Shown one piece after another: positions 1,727-57,955 of a stretch of 64,000 nt of DNA (its first letter is position 1; each line of letters starts with the position of its first letter). A model generated the notes under the pieces. It saw only the letters and a program-made list of their open reading frames with translations, did no database searches and had not been told where the DNA came from. The position numbers and the translations under genes are program-made. The stretch is taken from IMG/VR virus record IMGVR_UViG_3300033067_001119, positions 1 to 64,000 of that record. The stretch is one strand, 5' to 3'. Origin of the DNA: a virus. Lineage: Duplodnaviria; Caudoviricetes.

Positions 1727-4700
1727 TCAGTTCAGGTTTCCTGTATAGCAAGCCGCAGAAGTGCAGGTGGCCGCCGGGAGCGTGTAGGTCCAGCCGGGGG
1801 CAATGTTTTGCGAGATCACGTCGTATTGCGAGCACTGCTTCAGAATGGCGGTACCTGCGCCCGTGCCCTTGTCGATGAACCTGTTCCCCGCAATGTAGGC
1901 GCGGTTCACCTGCGTGCCGCAGTTGCCGAGGATGTTGATGAGCGGATTGGTGTAGGCGACGTTCGGTGACGTCTGGAAGATGTTGTTCACGATATGGAAG
2001 TTGTTCACGCCTGCAGTGGTCGGGGCAAATGCGCTCACGACTTCCATGGCCACTGGAAACTCGGTGAAGTACGAGTTGCTCAACCAGATATTCGAGTTCA
2101 CGACGCTGGCCGAAACTCCGGCGAAGACGACCGAGTTGACGGCCCCCGTGAAGTAAAGCTGATCCATGTTGAGCGTGCAGAGGGTGCAGTTCTGCATCTG
2201 GATGTAAGAGCCGTACGTCTGCCCACCCATCGCCACGTTGCCGAACCAAGCCGACGTCTTCGTCCCGCCTCCGGTCGTTTCCATCACCCAGCCGGTGACG
2301 CCCGTCTGCAGCCCGATGCCTCCGCCAACCATTTTGAAGTTGCCTGACGTCTGCACGCCGCCGTTAAACGTATCGAAGTTGCAGCCCGTACAGGTTATGC
2401 CAGCATCGCCAGCCGTCGCGAAGGTGCCGTAGAACATGTAGAGGCCAAGCTGCTGTGCCGTGGTGACGTTGGTCATCGTCATGCCGTCCACACGACCAAT
2501 CGAGAAGCACATCGCGCCGCTCGTCGATCCAGCAACCGGCGTCTGCGTGAGAGCGCCGTACTTTGTTGTCCCGGAGCCAATGCCGAATGGCCAGCAGTGG
2601 ATGTCCGTCAGGCGGATACTGTCGAGCGATCCGTCGATCTGGATGCCCTTGTTGTAGGCCGAGAACTGCACGTCCAGCATCTCAAGGCCGCCGCTGTTCC
2701 CGCGGAAATCAGCGAAGTCCCACGCCTCCTGCACCAGCACATGGCGCACCGACACACGCGCGCTGTCCTGACAATACAGGAATGGCTTGTAGGCCGTGAG
2801 CTGGCTGCGGATCGTCGACACGACGTAGGTCGTGATCGGCCCCGTATACGCCGTTGGCGCAAACGTCAGGGTCCACGATGTGCCGGAGCCGCTGGCGATA
2901 GTGACGTTTGGCTGCACCGATCCGGCCGGGCCGACCACTTGCCCGATGGCTATGCCGGTGCCGCTTGCCACCGTGAGGGATGTGCCGCTGATGGTTCCGG
3001 TAGTCGACGCCGCTGGCGTTGGCTCGGCCTGCGTAAACTGTACCATCAGATCGCGGATGGTGTTGCCCGGCTGCGAGCCGCTGCACTTGATGACCCCGTT
3101 GGTGAACCCGGCGTTGGAGGTGACGCAGAACGTCGGAACGCCGCGACCGTCGCCGAACACTTCCTGCGCGCCTGTCAGCTGCACGTCAGCTGTCAGCAGA
3201 TAGCAGCTCGACGGCTTGGGCCAGTAGATGTTCTTGCCGGTCGCGGCAGCTGTCGCAAACAGGGTCGAGGCGCTGACTGCGCCGGTGCCGTCTGCACCCA
3301 TCCACGCCATGTTGATCGGGAAGGCGTTCGAGCACGTCCACGCCGACAGCGTGCGCGCAATGACGTAGCCCACCGTATTGCAGTAGATGCTGTCGAACAG
3401 CGACGTGCCGCTCGTGCCGGTCGGCGTGGCTGTGCCGCCCGAGACGTTGGCCAAGACGCGGTTGTTGGCAATGGTCTGCGAGTTGATGATGTCCGCTGGC
3501 AGGACGTATTTGATGGTGCCAGCTGAGTTGTCGTAGATCGGCAGCTTGTCCGCCGCGCCGGGGGTGCCGCGCGCCGTCAGGCCCTGAATGGTGAAGTCCT
3601 GCACGTTGGCAGTCGAGGACGTCGGGTTGCCCTTGAGCGTGGCAGCGCCGCCCTGCGCGAGGACCGAGTTGGGCACCGTGTTGGCACCGGCAACCGTGCC
3701 GCTGAAGGTTGGGCTCGCAATCGTCGGGCTGGTGTCCATCACCACCTTGCCCGTACCGGTGATCTGGTATTCGCCGAGAACGCCCGCGTTGTCGTACAGC
3801 ACGCGAGTGGTGGTGCCGCCGCCGACCGTCGTCGTTCCCACCGTGACGCCGCTCGTCGAACCCGAGAACAGCACCCACGTCGAGGCGGTGGTGCCAACGG
3901 TCGTCACAGCAGGAGACATCACCCACGTCTGGCCGACATTGGCCGAGCCAGCAGTGATGGCGGTCGTGCTGTTGTTCAGCATCTCCGCCGCGGTGTCGAA
4001 GTAGGTGGCGCGGGTGAGTATCCACGGAGCCGCGCCCGAGCCCAGCTGCGTCAGCGTGTAGATGCCGTTCTGCGCCGGGGCGGCCTGATTCTTGACCAGC
4101 ACCACGTCGTTCAGGGCGACAGCCGTTCCATCCACCGTCAGCGTGGTGTTGGAGCCAGCCGTCAGCGTCGCGCCGACACCGGACGCGCCGTTCGAGTAGG
4201 TCGGCGAGTTCGGCAGCACCGCGGCGGTCGCGAGCAGGCTCGCCGCCACCGGGTTGAAGCCGGAGCCGACGCTGTCGACGTAGGCCTTGCTGGCGGCGTC
4301 ACCCGCAGCCGAAGGCGTCGGCACGTTGGTGATGGTGGTGCCGCTGGCATTGAAGCTCGTTCCGGTGATGGAGCCGCCGGAGATCGCGACGCTGGAGGCG
4401 TTCTGGGTGGCAATCGTGCCAAGCCCGAGGCTGGAGCGTGCTCCCGCAGCCGTCGTCGCCCCCGTGCCGCCTCCCGCAAGGCCCAGCGTGCCGAACGTCA
4501 TTGCAGCGGAACCGCCACCACCCGACAGCATGGGCTGACCTGACGCGCCCGCGTCGGTCGGCAGGTTGAAGTTGTAGGTCCCGGCCGCAGTCGCGCCGGG
4601 CTTGATAGTGACCGTGCCCGATACCGCCCCGGCAAAGCCGATCTGGCCGGTCGAGGTGCCGGGGATGCCGAGGACCGGATTGGTGATGCCGGACGGCGCG

Positions 4701-16345: not shown

Positions 16346-19300
16346 AGCGCTATCACCTCTTCATCGTCTCGCTCGATCTCCCGCATGCGCATCACGGTAG
16401 CGTCGATGCGCTCCGGCTGCGGCGGGTCTCGCAGGAAGTCCTTGCCGAAGATGTCCTCCAGCACGCGCAGGATACGTTCCTTGTCGCGCGCCTCGTCGAT
16501 GTCGATCTGCGGGTGGCCCTGCGCCAGCCGGTACTGATTCCACAGCCTGCGCCACGCCGGTCCAACGTCCTCGTCCGGCGGGATGAACGGGATGAACGGA
16601 GGGATGAGGGTGTCCCACGGCAGAAGGCCTCCGCCGCGGCTGAACAGGGGATGCGGAGGCTGCCATGCCTGCGGCGGCACCCACAGATTGCCGGAAACAA
16701 CGAAGATGTACGGCCTGTAGATGCCGTCATCGCCACGCATGACCGCGCCCGCGCGCTCACGCCTCGGGTGAGGAGGCTGCGGCGGCTGCACCAAGAAGCC
16801 GGTTTCGGCAAAGCGGCGATAGACCTCCGCGATATTGACCTGCGGCATGATCGCGCCAGCCTTGGCAAAGCGCATGCGCGGGAAGACATCCGGGGTCTGG
16901 TACCAGTTGATGACTTGAGCGACGAAGGTGAAGATGTCCTCGATGCCATCCTCGCCGCGCATGATAGCGCCAGCTCTCTCGGGCCGCGGGTGCGGGGGCT
17001 GCCAAGACTGATTCTCGAACCCAAAGTCGAAGAAGTTCTGGTAGAGGGCTTCGATGTTGAAGGCCGCCTCTGGATTGCGGAACGAGCGATGCGGAGGCTG
17101 CCATGGCTGGACTGGCCAGCCCTCTATGAACGGCGGGATCGGCTGCGGCGCTTGGTTGCCGTCGTCACCGATCAGGATCGCGCCCGCCTTTTCCCTGCGC
17201 GGGTGTGGAGGCTGCGGTGGCTGGACGTAGAAGCCGAAATCCCGGAACTGCGAGTAGACCGCAAACAGCGACTTGCTGCGGATGGCCGAGTAACGCTGCC
17301 CCGTGAAGCTGTGCCGGATCATCGGCGGCTGCACTTCCCAGCCCATCGGGAAGTAGTTCATGAAGCGGAACTGCGTTCCATCATCTTTCGGGGCGATAGC
17401 CGCAAAGCGCTGCCGGACCTTCGGGAAGAACGGCGGCTGCCACGGCTGGACATGCCACGCAACACCGACATGGACGGAGAACTCGGCGTAGATGCCGTCA
17501 TCCTTCGGGGCGATAGCGCCAGACTTCTCCGGGCGGGGATGCGGAGGCTGCGTGGGCTGAACCTCAAAGCCGAAGTCGAAGAAATTCTTAAACGTCGGCT
17601 CAACAAGCGACAGAAAGGGCGCTAGAGCCCCAAACTTTTCCGGCTTGAAGTGAGGTGGTGGCGGGGGCTGAACTTCCCAGCCAAAATTACGCCACGCATT
17701 GAATTTGTCTTGGTTGCCGTCATCGCCGCGCAGGATCGCCGCCGCTCTCTCTGGCTTAGGATGAGGCGGCTGAGGCGACTGAACCTCTCCACCCACTCCA
17801 ATCCAGTAAGAGAATGTTCCGGTGATACCAGCGTCGCCAAGCATGATCGCCCCGACCTTTTCCGGGCGAGGATGCGGGGGCGGAGGCGGCTGAACTTCGA
17901 ATCCAAAATCATAGAAAGCGGCAAAAGTAGATTGCGTACCATCGTCGCCACGCATGATCGATCCGGCCCTTTCAGGACGAGGATGCGGGGGCTGCCAGTC
18001 TTGGTTCTGCCAGCCCTGCGGGTACTGGAGTGGAGGCGTATAAATATCCAAAATACCGTCGTCGCCGAGCATAATTCCCGCAGATCGCTCAGGGCGGGGA
18101 TGCGGAGGCTGCGTGGGCTGAATAGGAAAGCCGAGCGGGGAAAATTGCCGGAGTGTATCCACCCCATCGCTGCCTCCGGCGAGGATGCCGCCCTTTCGGC
18201 GAGCTGGCGACGCATACACCGAAATTTCGGTTTGAAAGTAAGCCGAAACAGCCAGCGTTCCGGTGATGATGATGGCACCGCCAGCACCCACGCCTCCCGT
18301 AAGTGTTCCAGACGTTGACTTGCCGCCAGCACCGCCGCCGCCGCCGGGCCACCCGCCTGCCCCGCCTGCGACCGATGTCGAGCTGCTGTTTGTGCCACCA
18401 CCAGCACCACCGCCACCGCCGCGCATGTCGGAGGTGCCAGCACCACCAGCGCCTCCGTTAGTTCCAGAGCCCCCCGCCCCGCCGGAGGACGCCGAGCCGC
18501 CAGCGGCACCAGTGGTGGAAACAGAACTCGCCGTCCCCTGCACACCGGCAGCGGCATTTGTCGCCGCAGCAGCGCCACCACCACCATTGTTAGTCGAGCC
18601 GCCGCCCGCGCGACCATCAGCGCCCGCCCGCTTGGTGTCGCCAATCGCCGAAGTCGTCGTAGCGCCGGTTCCGGCTGTTCCGCTAGGACCATTGCCGCCG
18701 TCTGCGCTGGCACCGTTCGCGCGCAACTGCGCCCCAATCGTGCTGTTGCCCTTTCGGTTGCCAACCGTGACCGATAGCGCGCCGCCGGGGGTAATAGTGA
18801 GAGCATTGACCTTCGAATAGCCGCCCGAGCCACCGGAGCCACCGGAGCCATTCGTCGCACCGTTTCCTCCGGATGAGCCGCCGCCCCATGCCTCTCCAAA
18901 AGCCCCCGACGAACTCCAGTTCGAGGGAATGTTCGCGTTAAGAGTGATCGTTCCGGTGTTGGCGCTATCGCCGACAATGATGATCTGGTCCGGATCGCTT
19001 CCGGTGTATGTGATCTTGATGAGGCCGTATCCGCCGCGCGCTGCGCTGCCTGCTGCACTAGCGCCGCTGCCGCCGCCCGGGTTGCCGCCATTGCCGCCAA
19101 CGCCGCTTGTGTTGCTAAAGGCACCCCCGCCTGCGCCGCCGTTGTCCCAATCATCGCCGCCTGCGCCGCCGTTGGTAGTGGTGCCAGTGCCAGCACCACC
19201 GCCACCGGACCCGACGCCGCCTGCGGTGCCATTGTTGCCTGATGTGCCGCCAGCGCCGCCAGCAACTCCGCCTACGCTGTTGCCACCTGTGCCACCCGTA

Positions 19301-30552: not shown

Positions 30553-30617
30553 GAGCCCCAATGGCTCGACCCGCACCTTATCGCACATCCCGGAGCGCCG
30601 GTCAACAGGATGTTTAC
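30553..30617 (-). promoter_or_regulatory. Repeated operator/promoter/hairpin element, copy 1
   Basis: GTAAAC-N5-GTTGAC, 33 nt, then GAGCCATTGGGGCTC. Confidence 0.85.
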
Positions 30618-33121
30618 GCTGCCCTCCGCTTCCGTGCCCCCGGGTACAGGTTCTTCGGCACCGGCTTGTGCTTGGCGCGCTCGGTCTCCTCGTAGCGGAT
30701 TTCGCTGTCGTTGCGCAGCAGGCCGAGGTCCCGCAGGTGCTTGATGCCCTGCGTCATGGCGTCCGTCAGATCGTCGTGCTTGCCCTTGGGGAAGATCGCC
30801 ATTTCGTCGATCAGGTCCTGCCCCCACTGCCGGAGCGGAAAGGGGATGTAGACCAGCTCTTGGCTGAACGCTGGCTGCACCGACTGCGCCCGCGCCCACT
30901 TGTCGCCCCTGGGCTCGATCAGCTGCACTGCCCAGCCTGCGTGCGGGTGCGAATTGGCCAACGACTGTGCGGCCGAGATGCCCGCCGACTTGTTCTCGAT
31001 CAGGAGCCGATCCGCCTTGCGCCGGGTGCAGGTGTCGGCCAGCCACTCCACAAGCCCCCAGCTGCGCATCTGGCGCTCGCGGAACGCAATCGCCTTCTCG
31101 CCCGGCTGCAGGGTGATCTTGGGCCCCGAGAACTTCAGGATGCGCCGCCACGCCTCGATCACCATGACGCGATTGTAGCCCTCCTCGTTCTGGAAGATGC
31201 CAAGGCAGACCGCCGCGCTCGGGTCGCTGTTCTCCTTCTGCCCGTAGGCCGAATCAACCGACACCACGACGTAGCTGAAGATCGGGAATTTGCCGTCTGC
31301 CGGGCTCCACGGCTGCCACCACTCGCGCTCGAAGATCGAGCCGCCGCGGGTCTCTGGCGTCTGCTGGTACTGGGAGTTGGACGATGCTAGCCCCCAGACC
31401 ACATAATTGCCGGTCGTGGTGGTTAGGCCGTAGACCTCCTCAGTCGCGTCCGGCTCAATCGATATTACCCGCTCCCGGCCGGTGAACATGCGCGAGTTGA
31501 TCGCACTCTCGATGATCCGGTCGCGCCATTTTGTGGGCTGCACCTGATGCAGAAAACGCTGATACAGAGACAACATGGAAGACCGGCCAGTTGGGCCAGC
31601 TTTGAGCCAATAGGAACGCACCGGCGCATGCCCTTTTGCCCTCTGCCGGTGGCGCATCCCATAATCGAGCCCCAACAGGCTCAAATTAGCCTCCAGCTTC
31701 TCGCACAGGGGCAAATTCTTGCCTGCAGACTGGGTAAATGAGATCAGAGCGCTGGCGCTATTATGTTCGCGGCGCAGGTTGAGAGAAACGGTACCCTCAC
31801 CATCAAAGAACCCAGCCAACCAACCTGCCGCCCGAACCTCGTCTGGGGCCAGCTGCGGTATTGCTGGCGGGCATACTCGACGCAACTCACCGCCAATCCA
31901 TGCTGGGGCATAGGGGGGATGAGCGGCATCATTGCGCCCGGTCCACCACCTATGGTTCGCGGTGCAGCGGATTGTTCGACCGCTGTCGAATGTGACCTTG
32001 ACGCAAGGCTGGAGTGATTTGTGGACATCCAGAACGGTGGCCTCTTGGTATCGAGCGCGCCGCCTGTTGTCACCGATCCTGAACCCCACAATCTTGTCCC
32101 CCGGCACAACGGTGCCGATGGGCCTCATTGACAGATCGGCCATCAAGATCGGGGCTTCATACGGGTTGCAAGCCCAAGCGAACTTGCTCGCGTCGGACTT
32201 CATGGTCGGGATGATGTGCTCCGGGAAGCGCTCCGGCCACGCCAGCTCACCGTCGCAGTCCTGCGGGCGTGGCTTCCAGCGGGGATCGACCCAGCCGATG
32301 CTGGTGGCGAGCGGCTGCCCGTTGTCGTCGGCCTGCCAGACGTACTCCATCGGGATCAGCAGGTGGCACCAGCCATCCATCGAGCTAATGATCTCGCCGG
32401 AGACGTCCTCCTCGTTCACCCGCTGCATGATGACGACCTTCGCGCCGGTCTCCATGTTGTTGAGGCGGGACGACAGTGATTCGCGGAACCAGCGGATGGT
32501 CTCCTGCCGGACTGCCTTGGACTCCGATTCCTTGACGTTGTGCGGGTCGTCGATGATGGCCCGGTCGCCGCGCTCGCCGGTGCCGACGCCGCCAACCGAG
32601 GAGGCCAGCTTCCAGCCGTGCCGCATGTTGGTGACCTTGGTCTCGCCGACCTTCCGCAGCTGGACGCGGTCGCCGTACATTTCCTGATATTCCGGGCAGG
32701 TCAGCAGGTCCTTGAAGCGACCGTTGTCGCGCTCCGTCAGCATCGAGGAGTAGCTGAAGGTCACATAGCGGATGTGAGGCTTGTTCATCGGGCCCCACTC
32801 CCACGCGGGCCAGAAGACGTCCGTCAGCAGGCTCTTCATGAAGCCCGGCGGGACGTTGATCAGGAGCTTGGTGATCTCCCCGAAGGTGACCGCCTCAAGG
32901 TGCTCGCAGATCGCTTCCAGAGCCCACCCATCGACAAACTTGGTCCCCGGCTCCAGAACTGACCAGAAGTAGCGGACGAACTCCAGCAGGCCTCCCCGCC
33001 ATACGCCATCGGCATCCCGGTATCCGCGCCGCTGCTGCAGCTTCTTGGCCTGCCGACGACGCATCACGGCCATCAGCTTGGCAAACTCGGCGTGCTCAGG
33101 CTGGGAGAGCGGCTGATTCAC
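30614..33121 (-). CDS. terL: Terminase large subunit (intein-containing)
   Basis: LLINVPPGFMKS, IIDDPHN, VVSVDSAY, IENKSAG, HDDLTDA. Confidence 0.95.
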   Translation of the reverse strand: MNQPLSQPEHAEFAKLMAVMRRRQAKKLQQRRGYRDADGVWRGGLLEFVRYFWSVLEPGTKFVDGWALEAICEHLEAVTFGEITKLLINVPPGFMKSLLTDVFWPAWEWGPMNKPHIRYVTFSYSSMLTERDNGRFKDLLTCPEYQEMYGDRVQLRKVGETKVTNMRHGWKLASSVGGVGTGERGDRAIIDDPHNVKESESKAVRQETIRWFRESLSSRLNNMETGAKVVIMQRVNEEDVSGEIISSMDGWCHLLIPMEYVWQADDNGQPLATSIGWVDPRWKPRPQDCDGELAWPERFPEHIIPTMKSDASKFAWACNPYEAPILMADLSMRPIGTVVPGDKIVGFRIGDNRRRARYQEATVLDVHKSLQPCVKVTFDSGRTIRCTANHRWWTGRNDAAHPPYAPAWIGGELRRVCPPAIPQLAPDEVRAAGWLAGFFDGEGTVSLNLRREHNSASALISFTQSAGKNLPLCEKLEANLSLLGLDYGMRHRQRAKGHAPVRSYWLKAGPTGRSSMLSLYQRFLHQVQPTKWRDRIIESAINSRMFTGRERVISIEPDATEEVYGLTTTTGNYVVWGLASSNSQYQQTPETRGGSIFEREWWQPWSPADGKFPIFSYVVVSVDSAYGQKENSDPSAAVCLGIFQNEEGYNRVMVIEAWRRILKFSGPKITLQPGEKAIAFRERQMRSWGLVEWLADTCTRRKADRLLIENKSAGISAAQSLANSHPHAGWAVQLIEPRGDKWARAQSVQPAFSQELVYIPFPLRQWGQDLIDEMAIFPKGKHDDLTDAMTQGIKHLRDLGLLRNDSEIRYEETERAKHKPVPKNLYPGARKRRAA
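31376..32170 (-). mobile_element. 265-aa intein with LAGLIDADG endonuclease in terL
   Basis: FAWA|CNPYEAPILMAD...CTANHRW...GWLAGFFDGEG...VYGLTTTTGNYVVWGLASSN|SQYQQ. Confidence 0.9.
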
Positions 33122-53114: not shown

Positions 53115-53509
53115 GTTCGCTGCAAATGACCCTGTCAGAACAGGTCGACCGTCTCGTTGCCGAGAACCAGCACCTGCGCGTTAAGTCCGAGAACGACGAC
53201 AAGACCATTCACCTGCTGAAGGAGCAGTACACGCTGCTCGCCGATCAAGTGGACGGCATCAACGCCCGCGCCGAGCGTGAGATCGAGCGCTCCCGCACCA
53301 TCGCTCGCGACTCCATCATGAACATGCAGATCGACCGGGATCAGGCTCAGGTCGCCTACCGGGAGATCGAGAGCCTGCTGCTGCAGGCGACCGATACCAT
53401 CACGCAAGCGCTGCGGGCGCGCGTAGGAAACGAGACGCCAGAGAAAATGCCAGCAGCAGACCTGCCGCATATTCAGGACGACAGGCTCCCGGCCGTCAGC
53501 GTCGGCTGA
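53111..53509 (+). CDS. Coiled-coil hypothetical protein
   Basis: Last gene before the convergent terminator. Confidence 0.6.
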   Translation: MSSLQMTLSEQVDRLVAENQHLRVKSENDDKTIHLLKEQYTLLADQVDGINARAEREIERSRTIARDSIMNMQIDRDQAQVAYREIESLLLQATDTITQALRARVGNETPEKMPAADLPHIQDDRLPAVSVG

Positions 53510-53512
53510 AAC

Positions 53513-53551
53513 AAAAAACCCGCCACGACCAGTCAAGGTCGGGCGGGTTTT
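53513..53551. terminator. Bidirectional intrinsic terminator
   Basis: AAAAAA-CCCGCC.CGACC...GGTCG-GGCGGG-TTTT between convergent units. Confidence 0.8.
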
Positions 53552-53555
53552 GTAT

Positions 53556-53626
53556 TGGCACCGGTGCAAGGTACTGCCCCCTGCGTCACGGGTTTGGAGT
53601 CCGCATAGCGCCTTGCGCCCACCGGT
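53556..53626 (-). tRNA. trnW: tRNA-Trp(CCA), atypical T-loop GGCAGTA
   Basis: Cloverleaf folded by eye; encoded CCA. Confidence 0.75.
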
Positions 53627-53629
53627 AAT

Positions 53630-53703
53630 TGGTACTGCCTGATGGTTACGCTCCATCGTGTCGCGGTCCACAGCCGCGCGCTCTGCTATTGAGCTAAGGC
53701 AGC
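53630..53703 (-). tRNA. trnH: tRNA-His(GTG), G1:U72/A73, T-loop AGCGTAA
   Basis: Cloverleaf; encoded CCA. Confidence 0.85.
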
Positions 53704-53709
53704 ATGAAA

Positions 53710-53780
53710 TGGTCCCGAAGCCCTGTGTCGATCAGGGCTGGCAGCCGTATGAAAGCTGCGTCCTCGCCGGAGGCATCGGG
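53710..53780 (-). tRNA. tRNA-Met/Ile2(CAT), T-loop ATCGACA
   Basis: Cloverleaf; loop TTCATAC. Confidence 0.75.
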
Positions 53781-53781
53781 A

Positions 53782-53852
53782 TGGCAGCGGCACACAGTGT
53801 CGAACTGTGCTCTCAGGTTTCAAAGACCCAATCCCTCACCGGAGGTGCCGCA
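53782..53852 (-). tRNA. trnQ: tRNA-Gln(TTG)
   Basis: Cloverleaf; loop CTTTGAA. Confidence 0.8.
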
Positions 53853-53857
53853 TCAAA

Positions 53858-53933
53858 TGGTAGAGCCTGCGGGTGCTGCCCCCGCTTCCCCGCTTTGAAA
53901 GAGCAGGCATCCTAGCTGGTAGACGAAGGCTCC
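53858..53933 (-). tRNA. trnE: tRNA-Glu(TTC), T-loop GGCAGCA
   Basis: Cloverleaf; loop CTTTCAA. Confidence 0.8.
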
Positions 53934-53934
53934 G

Positions 53935-54009
53935 TGGAGCAGGCAGGGAGAATCGAACTCCCTTGGAACGCCTTGGAAGGGCGACGACCAGCCAATGGCC
54001 CATACCTGC
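53935..54009 (-). tRNA. trnG: tRNA-Gly(TCC)
   Basis: Canonical cloverleaf; U73. Confidence 0.9.
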
Positions 54010-54050
54010 GTAATTCGCAATTCGCCGCGAATTACGGCGAATTGCGGAAT

Positions 54051-54138
54051 TGGCGGAAGGCCGGAGACACGATCACCACACCGTTGCCAGTGCCATGCCC
54101 TTAGCAGGGGCCGCCAGCGCCTCGCTGGTTGACCTTCC
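54051..54138 (-). tRNA. trnS: tRNA-Ser(GCT) with 8/4 architecture
   Basis: 8-bp acceptor, 4-bp T-stem, 6-bp D-stem, long variable arm, G73. Confidence 0.8.
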
Positions 54139-54140
54139 AT

Positions 54141-54217
54141 TGGTGCCCACGGGAAGATTCGAACTCCCCTAGTCCAGCTACGGTACCCCGCTTAGGAGGC
54201 GGGGCCGGTACGTGGGC
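54141..54217 (-). tRNA. D-armless tRNA-like gene, anticodon CCT (Arg)
   Basis: 7-bp acceptor, 6-nt linker, 6-bp anticodon stem, 17-nt variable region, TTCGAAT loop. Confidence 0.6.
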
Positions 54218-54221
54218 AAAT

Positions 54222-54298
54222 TGGAGCCCCGAGGGTGAGTCGAACACCCGCCGGATCGCGTTTAGAAGACGCGCGCTCTTCCGCTGAGCTATCGGGGC
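54222..54298 (-). tRNA. trnR: tRNA-Arg(TCT)
   Basis: Canonical cloverleaf. Confidence 0.9.
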
Positions 54299-54300
54299 AT

Positions 54301-54374
54301 TGGAGATGCGAGCGCGAGTCGAACGCGCTTCCTCGGCTTTGCAGGCCGGTCCATGGCCGTTCTGGCATCGCATC
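54301..54374 (-). tRNA. trnC: tRNA-Cys(GCA)
   Basis: Cloverleaf; U73. Confidence 0.9.
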
Positions 54375-54378
54375 ATGT

Positions 54379-54448
54379 TGGCTGCGGACGAGGGTCTCGA
54401 ACCCGCTTCACCCGGTTCAGAGCCGGGCTTACTCCCTGAGTATCCGCA
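54379..54448 (-). tRNA. trnQ: tRNA-Gln(CTG)
   Basis: U1:A72; short D-arm. Confidence 0.8.
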
Positions 54449-54451
54449 AAA

Positions 54452-54528
54452 TGGTCTGGATGGCAGGCTTCGATCCTGCGGCCCCTCGCTTCCGAAGCGA
54501 GTGCTCTTCCGGGCTGAGCTACATCCAG
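54452..54528 (-). tRNA. trnP: tRNA-Pro(CGG), T-loop ATCGAAG
   Basis: C1:G72, A73. Confidence 0.9.
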
Positions 54529-54533
54529 ATGAA

Positions 54534-54610
54534 TGGTGATCCCGCGAGGATTCGAACCCCGACCTCCCAGATTCGTAGTCTGGCGCATTATCCAGTTGTG
54601 CTACGGGACC
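54534..54610 (-). tRNA. trnR: tRNA-Arg(ACG)
   Basis: Canonical cloverleaf. Confidence 0.9.
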
Positions 54611-54614
54611 GTTT

Positions 54615-54689
54615 TGGCGCTGCATGGGAGAATTGAACTCCCGTTCTCCGCGTGAGAGGCGGGCATCCTGACCACTAGACGAATGCAGC
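54615..54689 (-). tRNA. trnE: tRNA-Glu(CTC)
   Basis: Canonical cloverleaf. Confidence 0.9.
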
Positions 54690-54694
54690 ATGAT

Positions 54695-54769
54695 TGGCTC
54701 TGCTCCGAGGAATCGAACCTCGCTCGCATGCGTTAACAGCGCAGCCGCACACCTTGTGCGTTGAGCAGA
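54695..54769 (-). tRNA. trnN: tRNA-Asn(GTT)
   Basis: U1:A72, G73. Confidence 0.9.
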
Positions 54770-54776
54770 ACAGAGA

Positions 54777-54848
54777 TGGTGGAGTGACGGAGAGTTGAAC
54801 TCCGGACGGCAATCTTGCAAGGATCGCCTGCAGCCCGCTGCTCACCCC
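54777..54848 (-). tRNA. trnA: tRNA-Ala(TGC)
   Basis: G3:U70 present; reduced D-arm. Confidence 0.8.
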
Positions 54849-54852
54849 ATGT

Positions 54853-54928
54853 TGGTGCCCTGCGCCTGATTCGAACAGGCCTCCTGCGCTCTTCAGGCGC
54901 GTGCAATCACCAGATTTGCTAACAGGGC
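54853..54928 (-). tRNA. trnF: tRNA-Phe(GAA)
   Basis: Canonical cloverleaf. Confidence 0.9.
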
Positions 54929-54957
54929 GAATTGTGGGATTTTCCCACAATTCAAAT

Positions 54958-55031
54958 TGGAGCGGCCAGTCGGTTACGATCCGACGTCTCATCGTTGGCA
55001 ACGATGAACTCTGCCATTGAGCTATGGCCGC
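54958..55031 (-). tRNA. trnG: tRNA-Gly(GCC), T-loop ATCGTAA
   Basis: Cloverleaf; U73. Confidence 0.85.
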
Positions 55032-55032
55032 G

Positions 55033-55117
55033 TGGTGGGTAACCCGTGAATCGAACACGGCATGCCCGAAGGCGCAGCTTTTACAGAGCCGCTCAGTCAC
55101 CAGACTTGGCGTTACCC
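55033..55117 (-). tRNA. trnY: tRNA-Tyr(GTA)
   Basis: Long variable arm GCC-TTCG-GGC. Confidence 0.9.
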
Positions 55118-55122
55118 GAGAT

Positions 55123-55197
55123 TGGTTGCGGGAAAGGGACTTGCACCCCTGACCTCCGAGTTATGAGCCCGGCGAGCTGCTACTGCTCCACCCCGCG
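55123..55197 (-). tRNA. trnfM: Initiator-type tRNA-fMet(CAT), T-loop TGCAAGT
   Basis: C1xA72 mismatch; GGG in anticodon stem. Confidence 0.85.
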
Positions 55198-55201
55198 ATA
55201 A

Positions 55202-55277
55202 TGGTGCGCCGCTTGAACTCGGTCGCGCATCGACAAGTACATCCGTTGTTCGATGGAATTAGCGCTTGTAGCACATC
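55202..55277 (-). ncRNA. CCA-ending tRNA-like element of unassigned identity
   Basis: GTTCAA and CCA end; CATCG/CGATG stem; no cloverleaf. Confidence 0.35.
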
Positions 55278-55368
55278 TGGCGGGCGAGGGGTAGTAACGC
55301 TCTCCATGCCCGGTGGGCACCTTTGGTTTTCGAGACCAAGCTGGGGACTTCCCGCAGTTCTCTCGCCC
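55278..55368 (-). tRNA. trnS: tRNA-Ser(CGA) with extended acceptor and long D-stem
   Basis: 8-9 bp acceptor, T-loop AGCGTTA, long variable arm, G73. Confidence 0.7.
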
Positions 55369-55372
55369 GTGT

Positions 55373-55448
55373 TGGTGGTCCCCCGGTGATTCGAACACCG
55401 TGTCTCCCGCTTCGGAGGCGGGTGCCTTGTCCATCCGGCTCGGGGACC
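55373..55448 (-). tRNA. trnR: tRNA-Arg(CCG)
   Basis: Canonical cloverleaf. Confidence 0.9.
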
Positions 55449-55449
55449 G

Positions 55450-55827
55450 TTACTTCCTGCCCTTGCGGCGCACGTTGCCGCGGGCGTCGTAGTTGCCGGT
55501 CGGCCAGTAGCGGTTCATCTTCACCTCGCCGACCAGGCCGTCGTCGGTGAATACCGCCGGGCCCTTCAGCGTCTTGCCGTCGACCGCCTGCTCGAACGCA
55601 AGGTAGCTTCCGCCCGCATCCGGGCTCGCTGGGTTGACGAAAAACAGATCGAGGTCCGTTGGCTCATCCAGCGGGACGGGCACTCCAGCAGCCTCGCAGG
55701 CCCGGTAAAGGGCATCCCTGTATTGCTGGATTACCGCCTGATGCATCCGCCGGTGCGGTGCGTCGTGTATCCAGAGACGGAGCAGCGCCGGGAAGCGCTG
55801 GCCGTCATACTGTACCTTGATCTTCAT
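55450..55827 (-). CDS. Divergent RusA-like protein inside tRNA array
   Basis: LDLFFVNPASPDAGG...FEQAVDG...VFTDDGLV. Confidence 0.5.
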   Translation of the reverse strand: MKIKVQYDGQRFPALLRLWIHDAPHRRMHQAVIQQYRDALYRACEAAGVPVPLDEPTDLDLFFVNPASPDAGGSYLAFEQAVDGKTLKGPAVFTDDGLVGEVKMNRYWPTGNYDARGNVRRKGRK

Positions 55828-55837
55828 GGTGGGCCTT

Positions 55838-55903
55838 TGGTGGAAGCGGCGGGCTGGGTGAGCCCGCTAATCACTCTGTTATGAGCAGAGGGTCTCCGCT
55901 TTT
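55838..55903 (-). tRNA. D-armless tRNA-like remnant (CAT) overlapping the GIY-YIG 3' end
   Basis: CTCTG-CTCATAA-CAGAG arm, GCGGGC/GCCCGC T-like arm, CGCTTCC-A-CCA. Confidence 0.5.
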
Positions 55904-56404
55904 CGACTTCACTTCCCTCTGACGTTGCCACTGCAGGATCGCGGCTTGGCGCAGTCTCTCCCTATGCTCCGGCGATTTGGTGCGCCCCTTGTGGGCTAGG
56001 CCACCCTTTCGCCCGTTCTCACGAAGCTGCTCTTTGGCAAGAGAAAATATCCCAGTTCCACGATCTCGATTTGCGACCCCGCCCCGGCTTTGACTTTTGG
56101 ACGCGAATGCGCCCTTGCGGGCGTTCTCCGCGGTAAATCCACCAACACCACCGCGACGCATATTGTAGGTGCGCGACACACGGTAATCGGCGGTCAATTC
56201 CACTTCTTTTGCGTAAGCCTCAGCACTGGTGTCAAAAACGAACAACACGTCCTTGCGGAAGGAACGCTTGCCATGCTTCCGGATCGCAGCGCGGATAGCT
56301 CGACCACTCCCGAAGTATCCATCATTCGGATTGTCCGTCTTGTGGACACCGACGTAGGTCTTGCCGTTGGCCAGATTAGTGATGCGGTAGACGGTGAACA
56401 TCAC
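55871..56404 (-). CDS. GIY-YIG homing endonuclease with NUMOD3-like tail
   Basis: TVYRITNLANGKTYVG...YFGSG; HKGRTKSPEHRERL. Confidence 0.9.
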   Translation of the reverse strand: MMFTVYRITNLANGKTYVGVHKTDNPNDGYFGSGRAIRAAIRKHGKRSFRKDVLFVFDTSAEAYAKEVELTADYRVSRTYNMRRGGVGGFTAENARKGAFASKSQSRGGVANRDRGTGIFSLAKEQLRENGRKGGLAHKGRTKSPEHRERLRQAAILQWQRQREVKSKSGDPLLITE

Positions 56405-56447
56405 CGCACTATATCACAGGCCTTCCCATCTGGCTCAACGTGCGAAT

Positions 56448-56524
56448 TGGTCGGAGCGGCAGGATTTGAACCCGCGTATGCCTGCTCCCAAAGCAGGTGG
56501 TCGGCCAGACTGACCCACACTCCG
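56448..56524 (-). tRNA. trnP: tRNA-Pro(TGG)
   Basis: Canonical cloverleaf. Confidence 0.92.
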
Positions 56525-56629
56525 ATGTTCCCTCTCGTGGCGACGACGATGCGTCTTATCCGGCGCAGAAGTGTGGGACCTTGGTCACCACAGCGCTACC
56601 TCCAGTACGCCACGCCCCGGGGGACATGA
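56525..56629 (-). ncRNA. Unassigned ~105-nt structured RNA between tRNAs
   Basis: Nested stems CGTGGCG/CGCCACG, GCGC/GCGC, TGTGG/CCACA, GACC/GGTC. Confidence 0.4.
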
Positions 56630-56630
56630 T

Positions 56631-56705
56631 TGGCGATCCTGTCGGGTTACGATCCCGATTTGCTCCCGTGACAGGGGAGTAGCTTAGCCACTAGCTGACA
56701 GGACC
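56631..56705 (-). tRNA. trnD: tRNA-Asp(GTC), T-loop ATCGTAA
   Basis: Cloverleaf; G73. Confidence 0.88.
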
Positions 56706-56706
56706 T

Positions 56707-56782
56707 TGGTGTGCGTGGGGTGATTCGAACACCCGCTGTACAGGTTCTCGGCCTGCTCTCTCTGCCACTGGAGTACACGCAC
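56707..56782 (-). tRNA. trnL: tRNA-Leu(GAG), short variable loop, C33
   Basis: Cloverleaf; loop CCGAGAA. Confidence 0.8.
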
Positions 56783-56787
56783 ATTGT

Positions 56788-56863
56788 TGGTACACCCTCG
56801 GAGAATCGAACTCCGCCCTCATGGTTTAAGAGACCAGCGCACGAACCAACATGCTCAGGGTGT
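56788..56863 (-). tRNA. trnK: tRNA-Lys(CTT)
   Basis: Cloverleaf. Confidence 0.88.
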
Positions 56864-56868
56864 GTGAG

Positions 56869-56951
56869 TGGAGGACGTCGGAGGTTACGATCCTCATGCG
56901 ACGCGGTTTAAAAGACCGGCCCAAAGCCACTCTGGTTTACGCTCGACGTCC
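56869..56951 (-). tRNA. trnK: tRNA-Lys(TTT) with 8/4 architecture, U73
   Basis: GGACGTCG/CGACGTCC, GAGG/CCTC, 6-bp D-stem. Confidence 0.7.
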
Positions 56952-56956
56952 GTATC

Positions 56957-57160
56957 TCAGGACGCCGGTTTGCTGATGTTCTTCTCTTCGCACACCACGA
57001 TGGTGCCGGTGTCGCGGAAGTGATGCACCCAGCGTCGCCGCAGGCGCACGGGCACAAGCCCAAACTGGCAGTGGACGCATGGCGATGCTGCAGCCGCCCA
57101 TTCCTTCCATGCCTTCATCGAAGTCTCGACGAGAGGCCAGTCCGTTGCTGCCGTAGTCAT
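56957..57160 (-). CDS. Small Cys/His protein inside tRNA array
   Basis: CVHC...WVHH...C; AGGAG RBS. Confidence 0.5.
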   Translation of the reverse strand: MTTAATDWPLVETSMKAWKEWAAAASPCVHCQFGLVPVRLRRRWVHHFRDTGTIVVCEEKNISKPAS

Positions 57161-57173
57161 GGCGCTCTCCTGT

Positions 57174-57248
57174 TGGTGCTCGGAAGCGGCTTGCAACCGC
57201 CATGCGAGGCGTACGACGCGGCCTGCCCGCACCTTGCTAAGCCCGAGC
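57174..57248 (-). tRNA. Thr(CGT)-like tRNA with degenerate anticodon stem
   Basis: Good acceptor and T-stem, T-loop TTGCAAG, weak anticodon arm. Confidence 0.5.
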
Positions 57249-57252
57249 CTGT

Positions 57253-57326
57253 TGGTAGTCCCTGCTGGTTCTGCCCCAGCGTCGCACGGTTATCGGCCGC
57301 GCATTCTGCTATTGAACTAAGGGACC
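57253..57326 (-). tRNA. trnI: tRNA-Ile(GAT), C33, T-loop GGCAGAA
   Basis: Cloverleaf. Confidence 0.85.
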
Positions 57327-57330
57327 GTGA

Positions 57331-57405
57331 TGGTACGCGCTGCAGGTGCTGCCCCTGCCGCCTCCAGCGTGTCGAGCTGGCGATCTGCTGATGATCTAAG
57401 CGCGC
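57331..57405 (-). tRNA. trnV: tRNA-Val(GAC), C33, T-loop GGCAGCA
   Basis: Cloverleaf. Confidence 0.85.
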
Positions 57406-57410
57406 ATGAA

Positions 57411-57484
57411 TGGTAGTCCCTGACGGTACCTCCCCGCCTTCACCAGCGTGTAAAACTGGCGCATCAATTTAATGCTTAGGGACC
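57411..57484 (-). tRNA. trnV: tRNA-Val(TAC), T-loop GGAGGTA
   Basis: Cloverleaf. Confidence 0.8.
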
Positions 57485-57485
57485 A

Positions 57486-57562
57486 TGGTACCCGCGGCGT
57501 GATTTGAACACGCACTGTAACTTGTTTTGAGCAAGTGGCCTCTGCCGTTGGGCTACGCGGGC
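57486..57562 (-). tRNA. trnL: tRNA-Leu(CAA), short variable loop
   Basis: Cloverleaf; 6-nt variable region. Confidence 0.85.
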
Positions 57563-57566
57563 ATGG

Positions 57567-57643
57567 TGGTGTCCGCCCGGAGATTCGAACTCCGAACCTT
57601 CGCATTCTGAGTGCGACGCCTCTGCCAGTTGGGCTAGGCGGAC
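57567..57643 (-). tRNA. trnL: tRNA-Leu(CAG), short variable loop
   Basis: Cloverleaf; 5-nt variable region. Confidence 0.88.
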
Positions 57644-57644
57644 A

Positions 57645-57721
57645 TGGAGCCCGGCCGGGGTTACGATCCCCGTCCTCGCCCTTACCGGGGGCGTGTGCTG
57701 GCCATTGATCACTAGCCGGGC
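57645..57721 (-). tRNA. trnT: tRNA-Thr(GGT), C33, T-loop ATCGTAA
   Basis: Cloverleaf. Confidence 0.85.
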
Positions 57722-57802
57722 ATGTAGGCGGGAGCGTCCTAACCAACTAGACGAACAGGCCTGACGGCCCGTGGTGGATTCGAACCACCGTTTCTCCCTG
57801 CT
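57722..57802 (-). ncRNA. Circularly permuted, anticodon-less tRNA-like RNA (Asp/Glu-type body)
   Basis: 3' half (GGGAG-AAAC-GGTGG-TTCGAAT-CCACC-ACGGGCC-GTCA) precedes 5' half (GGCCTGT-TCGTCTAGTTGGTTAGGAC-G-CTCCC). Confidence 0.8.
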
Positions 57803-57877
57803 TGGAGCCCATGCCGATGCTCGAACTCGGCTCTCACCCTTACAAGGGGCGCGCGTCGCCATCTACGCTTCATGGGC
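57803..57877 (-). tRNA. trnT: tRNA-Thr(TGT)
   Basis: Cloverleaf. Confidence 0.88.
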
Positions 57878-57880
57878 AAA

Positions 57881-57955
57881 TGGTGCTGCCTCGGTGCCTC
57901 GAACACCGGTCACCGCTTTACGAGGGCGGCGCTCTTCCTGTTGAGCTAAGGCAGC
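57881..57955 (-). tRNA. trnT: tRNA-Thr(CGT)
   Basis: Canonical cloverleaf. Confidence 0.9.

Follow-up and report, generated by a model that had tools for sequence, protein, structure and literature searches.

How can the elbow of a tRNA be maintained when the nucleotides that normally build it are replaced? G18, G19, U54, U55, C56, A58 and the U8:A14 pair are taught as near-invariant in tRNA, and the question is raised by a viral record of the Caudoviricetes, IMGVR_UViG_3300033067_001119 (74,452 nt; G+C ~62%), in whose first 64 kb, the window analyzed here, a dense array of tRNA genes departs from these nucleotides again and again. The array (positions 53556-57955, minus strand) holds ~36 co-oriented genes in 4.4 kb of a single strand, covers 20 of 20 amino acids and encodes CCA in every gene. 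U54-U55-C56 is absent from 16 of these genes and retained in 20, including the sole Phe, Tyr, Cys, Asn and Ala species. Comparison with five related phage arrays showed that when one side of an elbow contact changes its partner changes as well, and the array is best read as a set of working phage tRNAs in which the elbow has probably been rebuilt, repeatedly, by compensatory substitution under relaxed sequence constraint.

Elbow variants and signs of function

The standard gene finders captured part of the array. ARAGORN called 23 tRNAs in it and Rfam 18 at the gathering score, or 19 with a focused search; a relaxed ARAGORN run (-ps80) returned 145 calls over the whole genome and was dropped as too noisy. 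A scan that was blind to loop sequence demanded an acceptor stem of 7 bp, CCA after N73 and, beside the acceptor stem, a T stem of 5 bp closing a loop of 7 nt; it had two matches outside the array on both strands of the 74 kb and recovered Val-TAC, Val-GAC, Ile-GAT, Lys-TTT, Ala-TGC, Arg-CCT, Ser-GCT, Ser-CGA, Glu-TTC, Gln-TTG, Trp and a second CAT tRNA within it. Against the Rfam model RF00005 (gathering threshold, 29 bits), some variant tRNAs scored above the threshold (His and fMet, 50.8 each; Gly-GCC, 58.7; Pro-CGG, 59.2; Ile, 42.2), and at E <= 1 nothing was returned for Val-TAC, Val-GAC, Glu-TTC, Trp, Thr-GGT, Asp, Lys-TTT, Ser-GCT, Ser-CGA or the second CAT tRNA. The 16 T loops listed from the minus-strand genes agree with the original prediction that 16 tRNAs lack T54-T55-C56. 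A wrong-strand artefact, in which that prediction would have read the plus strand, was ruled out, as the tRNAs it named are present on the minus strand.

The T-loop sequences also support the predicted division of position pair 54:58 into A:U, G:G and A:A classes (all coordinates in the window refer to the minus strand). A54:U58 is found in tRNA-Thr(GGT) (57645-57721) and tRNA-Asp(GTC) (56631-56705), both with the T loop ATCGTAA and the D-loop GG kept; in tRNA-Gly(GCC) (54958-55031), with the same T loop and U73; in tRNA-Lys(TTT) (56869-56951), which has ATCGTAA, a length of 83 nt and an unusual D region; and in tRNA-His (53630-53703), with T loop AGCGTAA and D loop AATAGCA. Both Ser tRNAs belong here as well, the 88-nt Ser-GCT (54051-54138; ATCGTGT), which is near-identical across all relatives, and the 91-nt Ser-CGA (55278-55368), whose AGCGTTA is flanked by GGAG and CTAC. 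G54:G58 occurs in tRNA-Val(GAC) (57331-57405; GGCAGCA with D loop ATCAGCA, giving A18:G55), tRNA-Ile(GAT) (57253-57326; GGCAGAA with AATAGCA), tRNA-Glu(TTC) (53858-53933; GGCAGCA with ACCAGCTA), tRNA-Trp(CCA) (53556-53626; GGCAGTA, with a short D arm, GCGC-AAG-GCGC) and tRNA-Val(TAC) (57411-57484; GGAGGTA with TAAATTG). A54:A58 is seen in tRNA-Pro(CGG) (54452-54528; ATCGAAG) and in the second CAT tRNA, Met or Ile2 (53710-53780; ATCGACA, with a short D arm). The initiator tRNA-Met (55123-55197) pairs T loop TGCAAGT (G55) with D loop AGTAGCA (A18), and a tRNA-like unit (57174-57248) has an acceptor stem, a T arm (TTGCAAG) and CCA with poor D and anticodon arms; no counterpart of this unit was seen among the relatives' arrays.

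Changes at the second position of the T loop are matched in the D loop. G55 is present in nine tRNAs here, or eight if Lys-TTT and both Ser tRNAs, whose unusual folds make the 18/19 assignment less certain, are excluded from the parse; the D arm of Trp is likewise ambiguous for 18/19. As had been predicted, AG stands in place of the D-loop GG in His, Ile, Val-GAC, Glu-TTC and fMet, and the suggested exchange of G19:C56 for T:A in Val-TAC can be seen directly. The elbow of Val-TAC thus consists of G54:G58, A18:G55 and U19:A56, with both G18:U55 and G19:C56 replaced, and both Val tRNAs were missed by ARAGORN and Rfam alike.

His, Trp, Ile, Val and Asp are served by variant tRNAs only, and identity elements are kept across the array: G1·U72 and A73 in His; G3·U70 in Ala; G73 in Trp, Asp, Ser and Asn; C1:G72 in Pro, where the discriminator is A73; U1:A72 and G73 in Gln; U73 in Cys; and C1·A72 in fMet. 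Directly after the last tRNA gene lies a predicted intrinsic terminator (53509-53551, minus strand; -28.1 kcal/mol, z = -5.8) with a U tract behind it, and the array of one relative, G003, has a similar hairpin. The terminator of this phage has a long loop, which is why a simple terminator scan overlooked it, and was found by folding. That these are working tRNAs is supported by the identity elements, the encoded CCA and the terminator. All three His tRNAs compared have G1·U72 and A73 and lack G-1. A tRNA-His of this kind is conserved in an alphaproteobacterial subgroup, and in Caulobacter U72 and the anticodon are the major identity elements, with a contribution from A73 (PMC3064791). These features of the His tRNAs suggest that the host is an alphaproteobacterium whose tRNA-His lacks G-1.

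Matched switching across six arrays

Of the five related phage arrays, G001 was located through a 1000-aa virion protein (64% identity), G003 through a domain of that protein, and L254, L269 and L270 through the nearly invariant Ser-GCT tRNA; 80 loci found through an InPase domain were mostly without a tRNA array. The tRNA genes of the related arrays are identical in kind and order, but their elbows are different. Orthologues switch elbow type from array to array and the partner loop follows every time. Phe combines D loop ATCTGGTGA with TTCGAAT in this phage and ATCTATTGA with GGAGGAA in G001 and G003, and Glu-TTC runs the other way, with ACCAGCTA and GGCAGCA here and ACTGGCTA and ATCGATA in the same two relatives. 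The D and T loops of Ile are AATAGCA and GGCAGAA here, AAAGGTA and ATCGTTA in G001, and AATGGCA and ATCGTAA in G003. Matched flips were also observed in the orthologues of His, fMet, Trp and Val-TAC, and A19:U56, in which a D-loop GA accompanies TTTGATT, appears in Trp of G003, Thr-CGT of L269 and Gln-TTG of L270. Lys-TTT has the T loop GGCAGTA in G001 and G003, and Ser-CGA has TTCGAAT in the same frame in G001. Conversely, a loop that is variant in relatives can be canonical, as in Phe, Tyr and Lys-CTT of this phage and in Thr-GGT of G001. The set of variant tRNAs differs from phage to phage, with a non-TTC share of 39-60% in each of the six arrays.

The 18:55 contact was evaluated with an alignment-free count of GG in the D loop over 142 tRNAs of the six arrays, because the raw MAFFT columns for 18:55 hold a few misaligned D loops. 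U55 was accompanied by a D-loop GG in 118 of 124 tRNAs and G55 by a true GG in 0 of 17 (Fisher p = 2.5e-15); the lone apparent GG in a G55 tRNA arose spuriously when the loop was run together with the adjoining stem base, and five of the six U55 exceptions have A19 plus a nucleotide other than C56. Matching at 56:19 was similar, with U56 facing A19 in 3/3 cases and A56 facing U19 in 3/4. At 54:58, 156 tRNAs of the six arrays contained U:A (89), G:G (25), A:U (20), A:A (17) and C:A (5), and no sixth combination. The cloverleaf is intact around these changes: the paired share of cells in 84 aligned class-I tRNAs is 92.9%, compared with 55.6% in shuffles, and none of 500 shuffles reached the observed value. 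The same 84 tRNAs have 19:56 as G:C in 77, U:A in 3, A:U in 1 and other combinations in 2, and G53:C61 is kept in 79. Variation of the same kind is present outside the elbow at the reverse-Hoogsteen pair 8:14 (U:A, 53; A:U, 8; G:G, 6; A:A, 4).

Rates of change separate these contacts. Over 72 orthologue pairs, the differing fraction was 0.42 at position 54, 0.35 at 58 and 0.36 at 8, compared to 0.33-0.47 in stems, 0.18 at position 55, 0.09 at 19, 0.11 at 56 and 0.07 at 53:61. Since the two reverse-Hoogsteen pairs, 54:58 and 8:14, change about as fast as stems, they behave as ordinary covarying base pairs; the 18:55 contact is slower to change, and the outer pair 19:56 and G53:C61 remain constrained. 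The original claim that covariation reflects selection rather than decay is borne out by orthologues that switch together with a matched partner loop and keep their identity elements. Its further claim of an orthogonal-elbow set lacks support in that form: there is no fixed set when 20 of ~36 tRNAs, sole isoacceptors included, are canonical and variant status varies among phages, and the idea is also undercut by the like variation of 8:14 outside the elbow and by rates at 54:58 and 8:14 that approximate those of stem pairs.

The alternatives at position 55 resemble a motif found in other RNAs. The base inserted in the T loop of tRNA is G18. In riboswitches and rRNA, T loops follow the consensus YGNRA and take up, between loop positions 4 and 5, a base that is almost always adenine; the tRNA T loop, with U at position 2, is the exception, and rRNA also has a GGAAG T loop (bioRxiv 10.1101/2022.12.26.521914). 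Because YGNRA loops take an inserted adenine whereas tRNA inserts G18, the phage TGCAA, AGCGT, GGCAG and GGAGG loops with A18 look like a switch from the tRNA type to the general T-loop type. The covariation places A18 in every clear G55 tRNA, and the association extends beyond these phages. The exact A18 D arm TAGCTCAATAGCAGAGC was found in at least 120 bacterial contigs, many belonging to Verrucomicrobiota and Patescibacteria, as well as in 53 further viral contigs; among the parsed tRNAs with this arm, G55 was present in 90/93 bacterial and 32/35 viral cases (122/128 together). A search of the literature for tRNAs combining A18 and G55 turned up no description.

Explanations for the rebuilt elbow

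The explanation preferred here, with a probability of roughly 0.6, is that these are working phage tRNAs in which the elbow has been rebuilt repeatedly by compensatory substitution under relaxed sequence constraint. The variant tRNAs would derive from a single transcription unit and be charged by the synthetases of the host, and their tertiary corner would have moved many times among alternative solutions of one fold, with 18:55 switching between G:U and A:G and 19:56 among G:C, U:A and A:U. With G55 and A18, the UUCRA loop, which receives G18 between bases 57 and 58, would become a YGNRA or GGNRG loop that receives an adenine. The main driver may be the loss of sequence-specific constraint on a long-lived accessory phage array: were the array to do without the enzymes by which the host reads U8, U54 and U55, three-dimensional shape alone would still be selected, and with only shape under selection the elbow and 8:14 pairs would drift like helix pairs. 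Resistance to nucleases or modifying enzymes that depend on U54 or U55 would be a by-product or secondary benefit.

Several points weigh against this explanation. Relaxed constraint leaves canonical phage tRNA sets unexplained, such as the six tRNAs of the phage G006, and the directional loss of U54, with 39-60% non-TTC loops per array, could equally reflect selection. Additionally, the rate comparison depends on a MAFFT alignment containing a few misaligned D loops, and the Cys tRNAs of G001 and G003 have A19:A56 and A19:G56, which are not obviously isosteric. Relaxed constraint is nevertheless ranked above the alternatives, in the order in which they follow, because 20 tRNAs are canonical, variant status is unconserved, 8:14 varies in the same way and the rates are not above those of stems.

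A second, tentative explanation is counter-defence, in which variant elbows were selected to remove the U54-U55 (and U8) site read by host nucleases, toxins or modifying enzymes, and phage tRNAs survive while host tRNAs are cut. A plausible type of target exists in CbCash, a CRISPR-associated Schlafen nuclease that cuts tRNA T loops at UUC and whose cutting is abolished by a single mutation at U54 or U55 (PMC13462974). U54 and/or U55 is changed in each variant here, the non-TTC share is 39-60% in each of the six arrays, and all 20 amino acids are covered, as would be expected of a replacement set; the matches to the A18 pattern also agree with an occurrence mainly in accessory or mobile tRNA arrays. 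By this account A18:G55, U19:A56, G54:G58 and A54:U58 would be a widespread counter-defence of phage and mobile arrays that keeps the L shape and drops the nuclease sites, and if it were true, synthetases, EF-Tu and the ribosome would still find the shape they require and translation would continue after destruction of the host tRNAs. What makes it doubtful is that UUC is retained by 20 of ~36 tRNAs, sole isoacceptors among them. The status of a given tRNA is also unconserved, as in the canonical Phe, Tyr and Lys-CTT of this phage and Thr-GGT of G001; the 8:14 pair has a like spectrum despite its position outside the T loop; and the rates are no higher than those of stems. A Pfam screen of ~30 phage proteins, which was not exhaustive, found no tRNA-modifying, repair, nuclease or anti-nuclease gene.

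It is improbable that the driver acted on DNA, with diversification of the T-loop sequence (GGTTCGAATCC) keeping deletions or endonuclease cuts in check and the D loop compensating in the RNA. The T-loop DNA is the longest repeat among the tandem tRNA genes and a likely homing-endonuclease target, T4 SegB reportedly makes its cuts preferentially inside tRNA genes (cited in PMC8421152), and a gene for a GIY-YIG (SegE-like) homing endonuclease (55871-56404, minus strand) lies inside this array and is absent from those of G001 and G003. The endonuclease-free arrays are, however, equally variable, the parallel changes at 8:14 are left unexplained, and repeat content is not reduced because the A54 variants create many identical GGATCG repeats. 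Least probable of all is that the variants are unused in translation, as decaying pseudogenes or as tRNA-like decoys or regulators: many do fall below the Rfam and ARAGORN thresholds, and the array has odd members (a permuted tRNA-like unit, a D-armless unit and the poor cloverleaf at 57174-57248), but variant stems pair as well as those of canonical members, discriminator and acceptor identity elements are retained, the compensation recurs in six arrays, and the variant anticodons complete the set, as His, Trp, Ile, Val and Asp rely on them alone.

Array surroundings and wider significance

Several other unusual tRNA forms accompany the elbow variants. A circularly permuted tRNA-like unit (57722-57802, minus strand; also L009, ~16625-16713, and the reverse complement of L092, gap 269-416) begins with the 3' half (anticodon-stem strand, T arm and acceptor strand), continues through a short loop (GTCA here, GAAA in G003) and ends with the 5' half (acceptor strand, D arm and anticodon-stem strand), with the anticodon loop absent; all three phages retain the unit, with compensating changes in its acceptor stem. 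The tRNAs Leu-GAG, Leu-CAA and Leu-CAG (56707-56782, 57486-57562 and 57567-57643, minus strand) are 76-77 nt long with a short variable loop, as they are in G001. As Leu-CAA and Leu-GAG of G003 and L269, and Leu-CAG of L269, are 85-89 nt long with a long variable arm, this arm seems to have been lost within the phage lineage; an 86-nt unit at the Leu-CAG position of G003 is not assignable.

Arg-CCT (54141-54217, minus strand) lacks a normal D arm and has an anticodon stem of 6 bp plus, at the position of the variable arm, a small GG-containing hairpin (TAG-CTGGA-CTA); its form is similar in G003 (gap 3498-3579), and the tRNA of G001 with the same anticodon is a normal cloverleaf. Gln-TTG, Gln-CTG, the second CAT tRNA and Ala-TGC (53710-53852, 54379-54448 and 54777-54848, minus strand) have D loops of 3-5 nt and total lengths of 70-72 nt, a form conserved among the relatives, and with any T loop their elbow contacts are necessarily non-standard. 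In Ser-GCT and Ser-CGA the D stem is long, at 6 bp, and closes a loop of 3-4 nt; in Ser-CGA the 4-bp T stem also includes a G·A mismatch and the acceptor stem is longer (8/4- or 9/3-like), a fold that its G001 orthologue shares. C33 replaces U33 in Ile-GAT, Thr-GGT and Leu-GAG here and in 6 of the 84 tRNAs over three phages.

Between the tRNA genes, the GIY-YIG gene occupies the place of the elongator Met-CAT tRNA of G001 and G003, which is missing in this phage. Two small open reading frames in the array (55450-55827 and ~56957-57159, minus strand) encode a 125-aa protein without a Pfam match and a ~67-aa Cys-rich peptide with a CxxC motif, and both are conserved inside the relatives' arrays. 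Two perfect AT-rich inverted repeats (54010-54050 and 54929-54957, minus strand), also situated between tRNA genes, have the arms GCAATTCGCCG...CGGCGAATTGC and GAATTGTGGGA...TCCCACAATTC. Elsewhere the phage encodes an SU10-type portal, a large terminase, ERF and YqaJ recombination genes and a DnaB-like helicase. A search of a phage collection with the phage DNA found neither near nor distant cultured relatives; the best match to the terminase is 40% identical, and Roseobacter and Paracoccus phages are among the top matches. The terminase (30614-33121, minus strand; 835 aa) matches other terminases over ~60% of its length in two separated pieces, a pattern suggestive of an insertion, for instance an intein or extra domain.

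These tRNAs can be set against several known systems. With the canonical elbow (G18-Psi55, G19-C56 and T54-A58; RF00005) they share the cloverleaf, the 7-nt T loop, encoded CCA, identity elements and the prevailing G53:C61 and G19:C56; they differ in that U54, U55, G18, A58 and U8:A14 are replaced as matched sets in 39-60% of genes. The T-loop and receptor modules that occur in rRNA and in the FMN and cobalamin riboswitches have the same G at position 2, a varied non-canonical 1-5 pair that includes G...G, and the partner A. Those modules do not lie within tRNA, whereas the putative phage version sits in a tRNA elbow and keeps the 19:56 outer pair. In animal mitochondrial tRNAs, the D and T loops are degenerate, the contact is often lost and loop sizes are changed. 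Both depart from the universal elbow nucleotides, but the phage tRNAs keep loop size and pairing logic through strict compensation. Variant tRNAs of phage T5 reportedly resist anticodon nucleases through changes in the anticodon loop that were shown experimentally; there, as here, the phage sequence differs from that of the host at nuclease-recognition sites, though the changes described here are in the tertiary core and any resistance they confer is putative. The purine-purine pair A54:A58, which closes the T loop in eukaryotic initiator tRNA and tRNA-Ala, was known only from those tRNAs and stated to be absent from bacterial and archaeal ones (PMC7566577; PMC7912444), and it is described as going together with R15:A48 (PMC7566577). 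In the phages it occurs in several specificities, beside A:U, G:G and C:A. The array as a whole resembles the long arrays of tRNA genes known as L-arrays in its dozens of co-oriented genes, more than 20, and the homing endonuclease gene inside; the L-array paper contains no discussion of tertiary or elbow variants.

The standard finders miss at least a third of such tRNA genes, and the tRNA content of phages is therefore under-counted. The array presents a complete, apparently functional tRNA set that explores matched alternatives to positions regarded as near-invariant and links the tRNA elbow to the wider family of T-loop motifs. It also supplies ready-made substrates with which enzymes, nucleases and ribosome contacts that read bases can be separated from those that read shape. 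The six related phages amount to a natural compensatory-mutation experiment on the tRNA core, and the rules that emerge from it are testable: G55 needs A18, A56 needs U19, and G54 needs G58.

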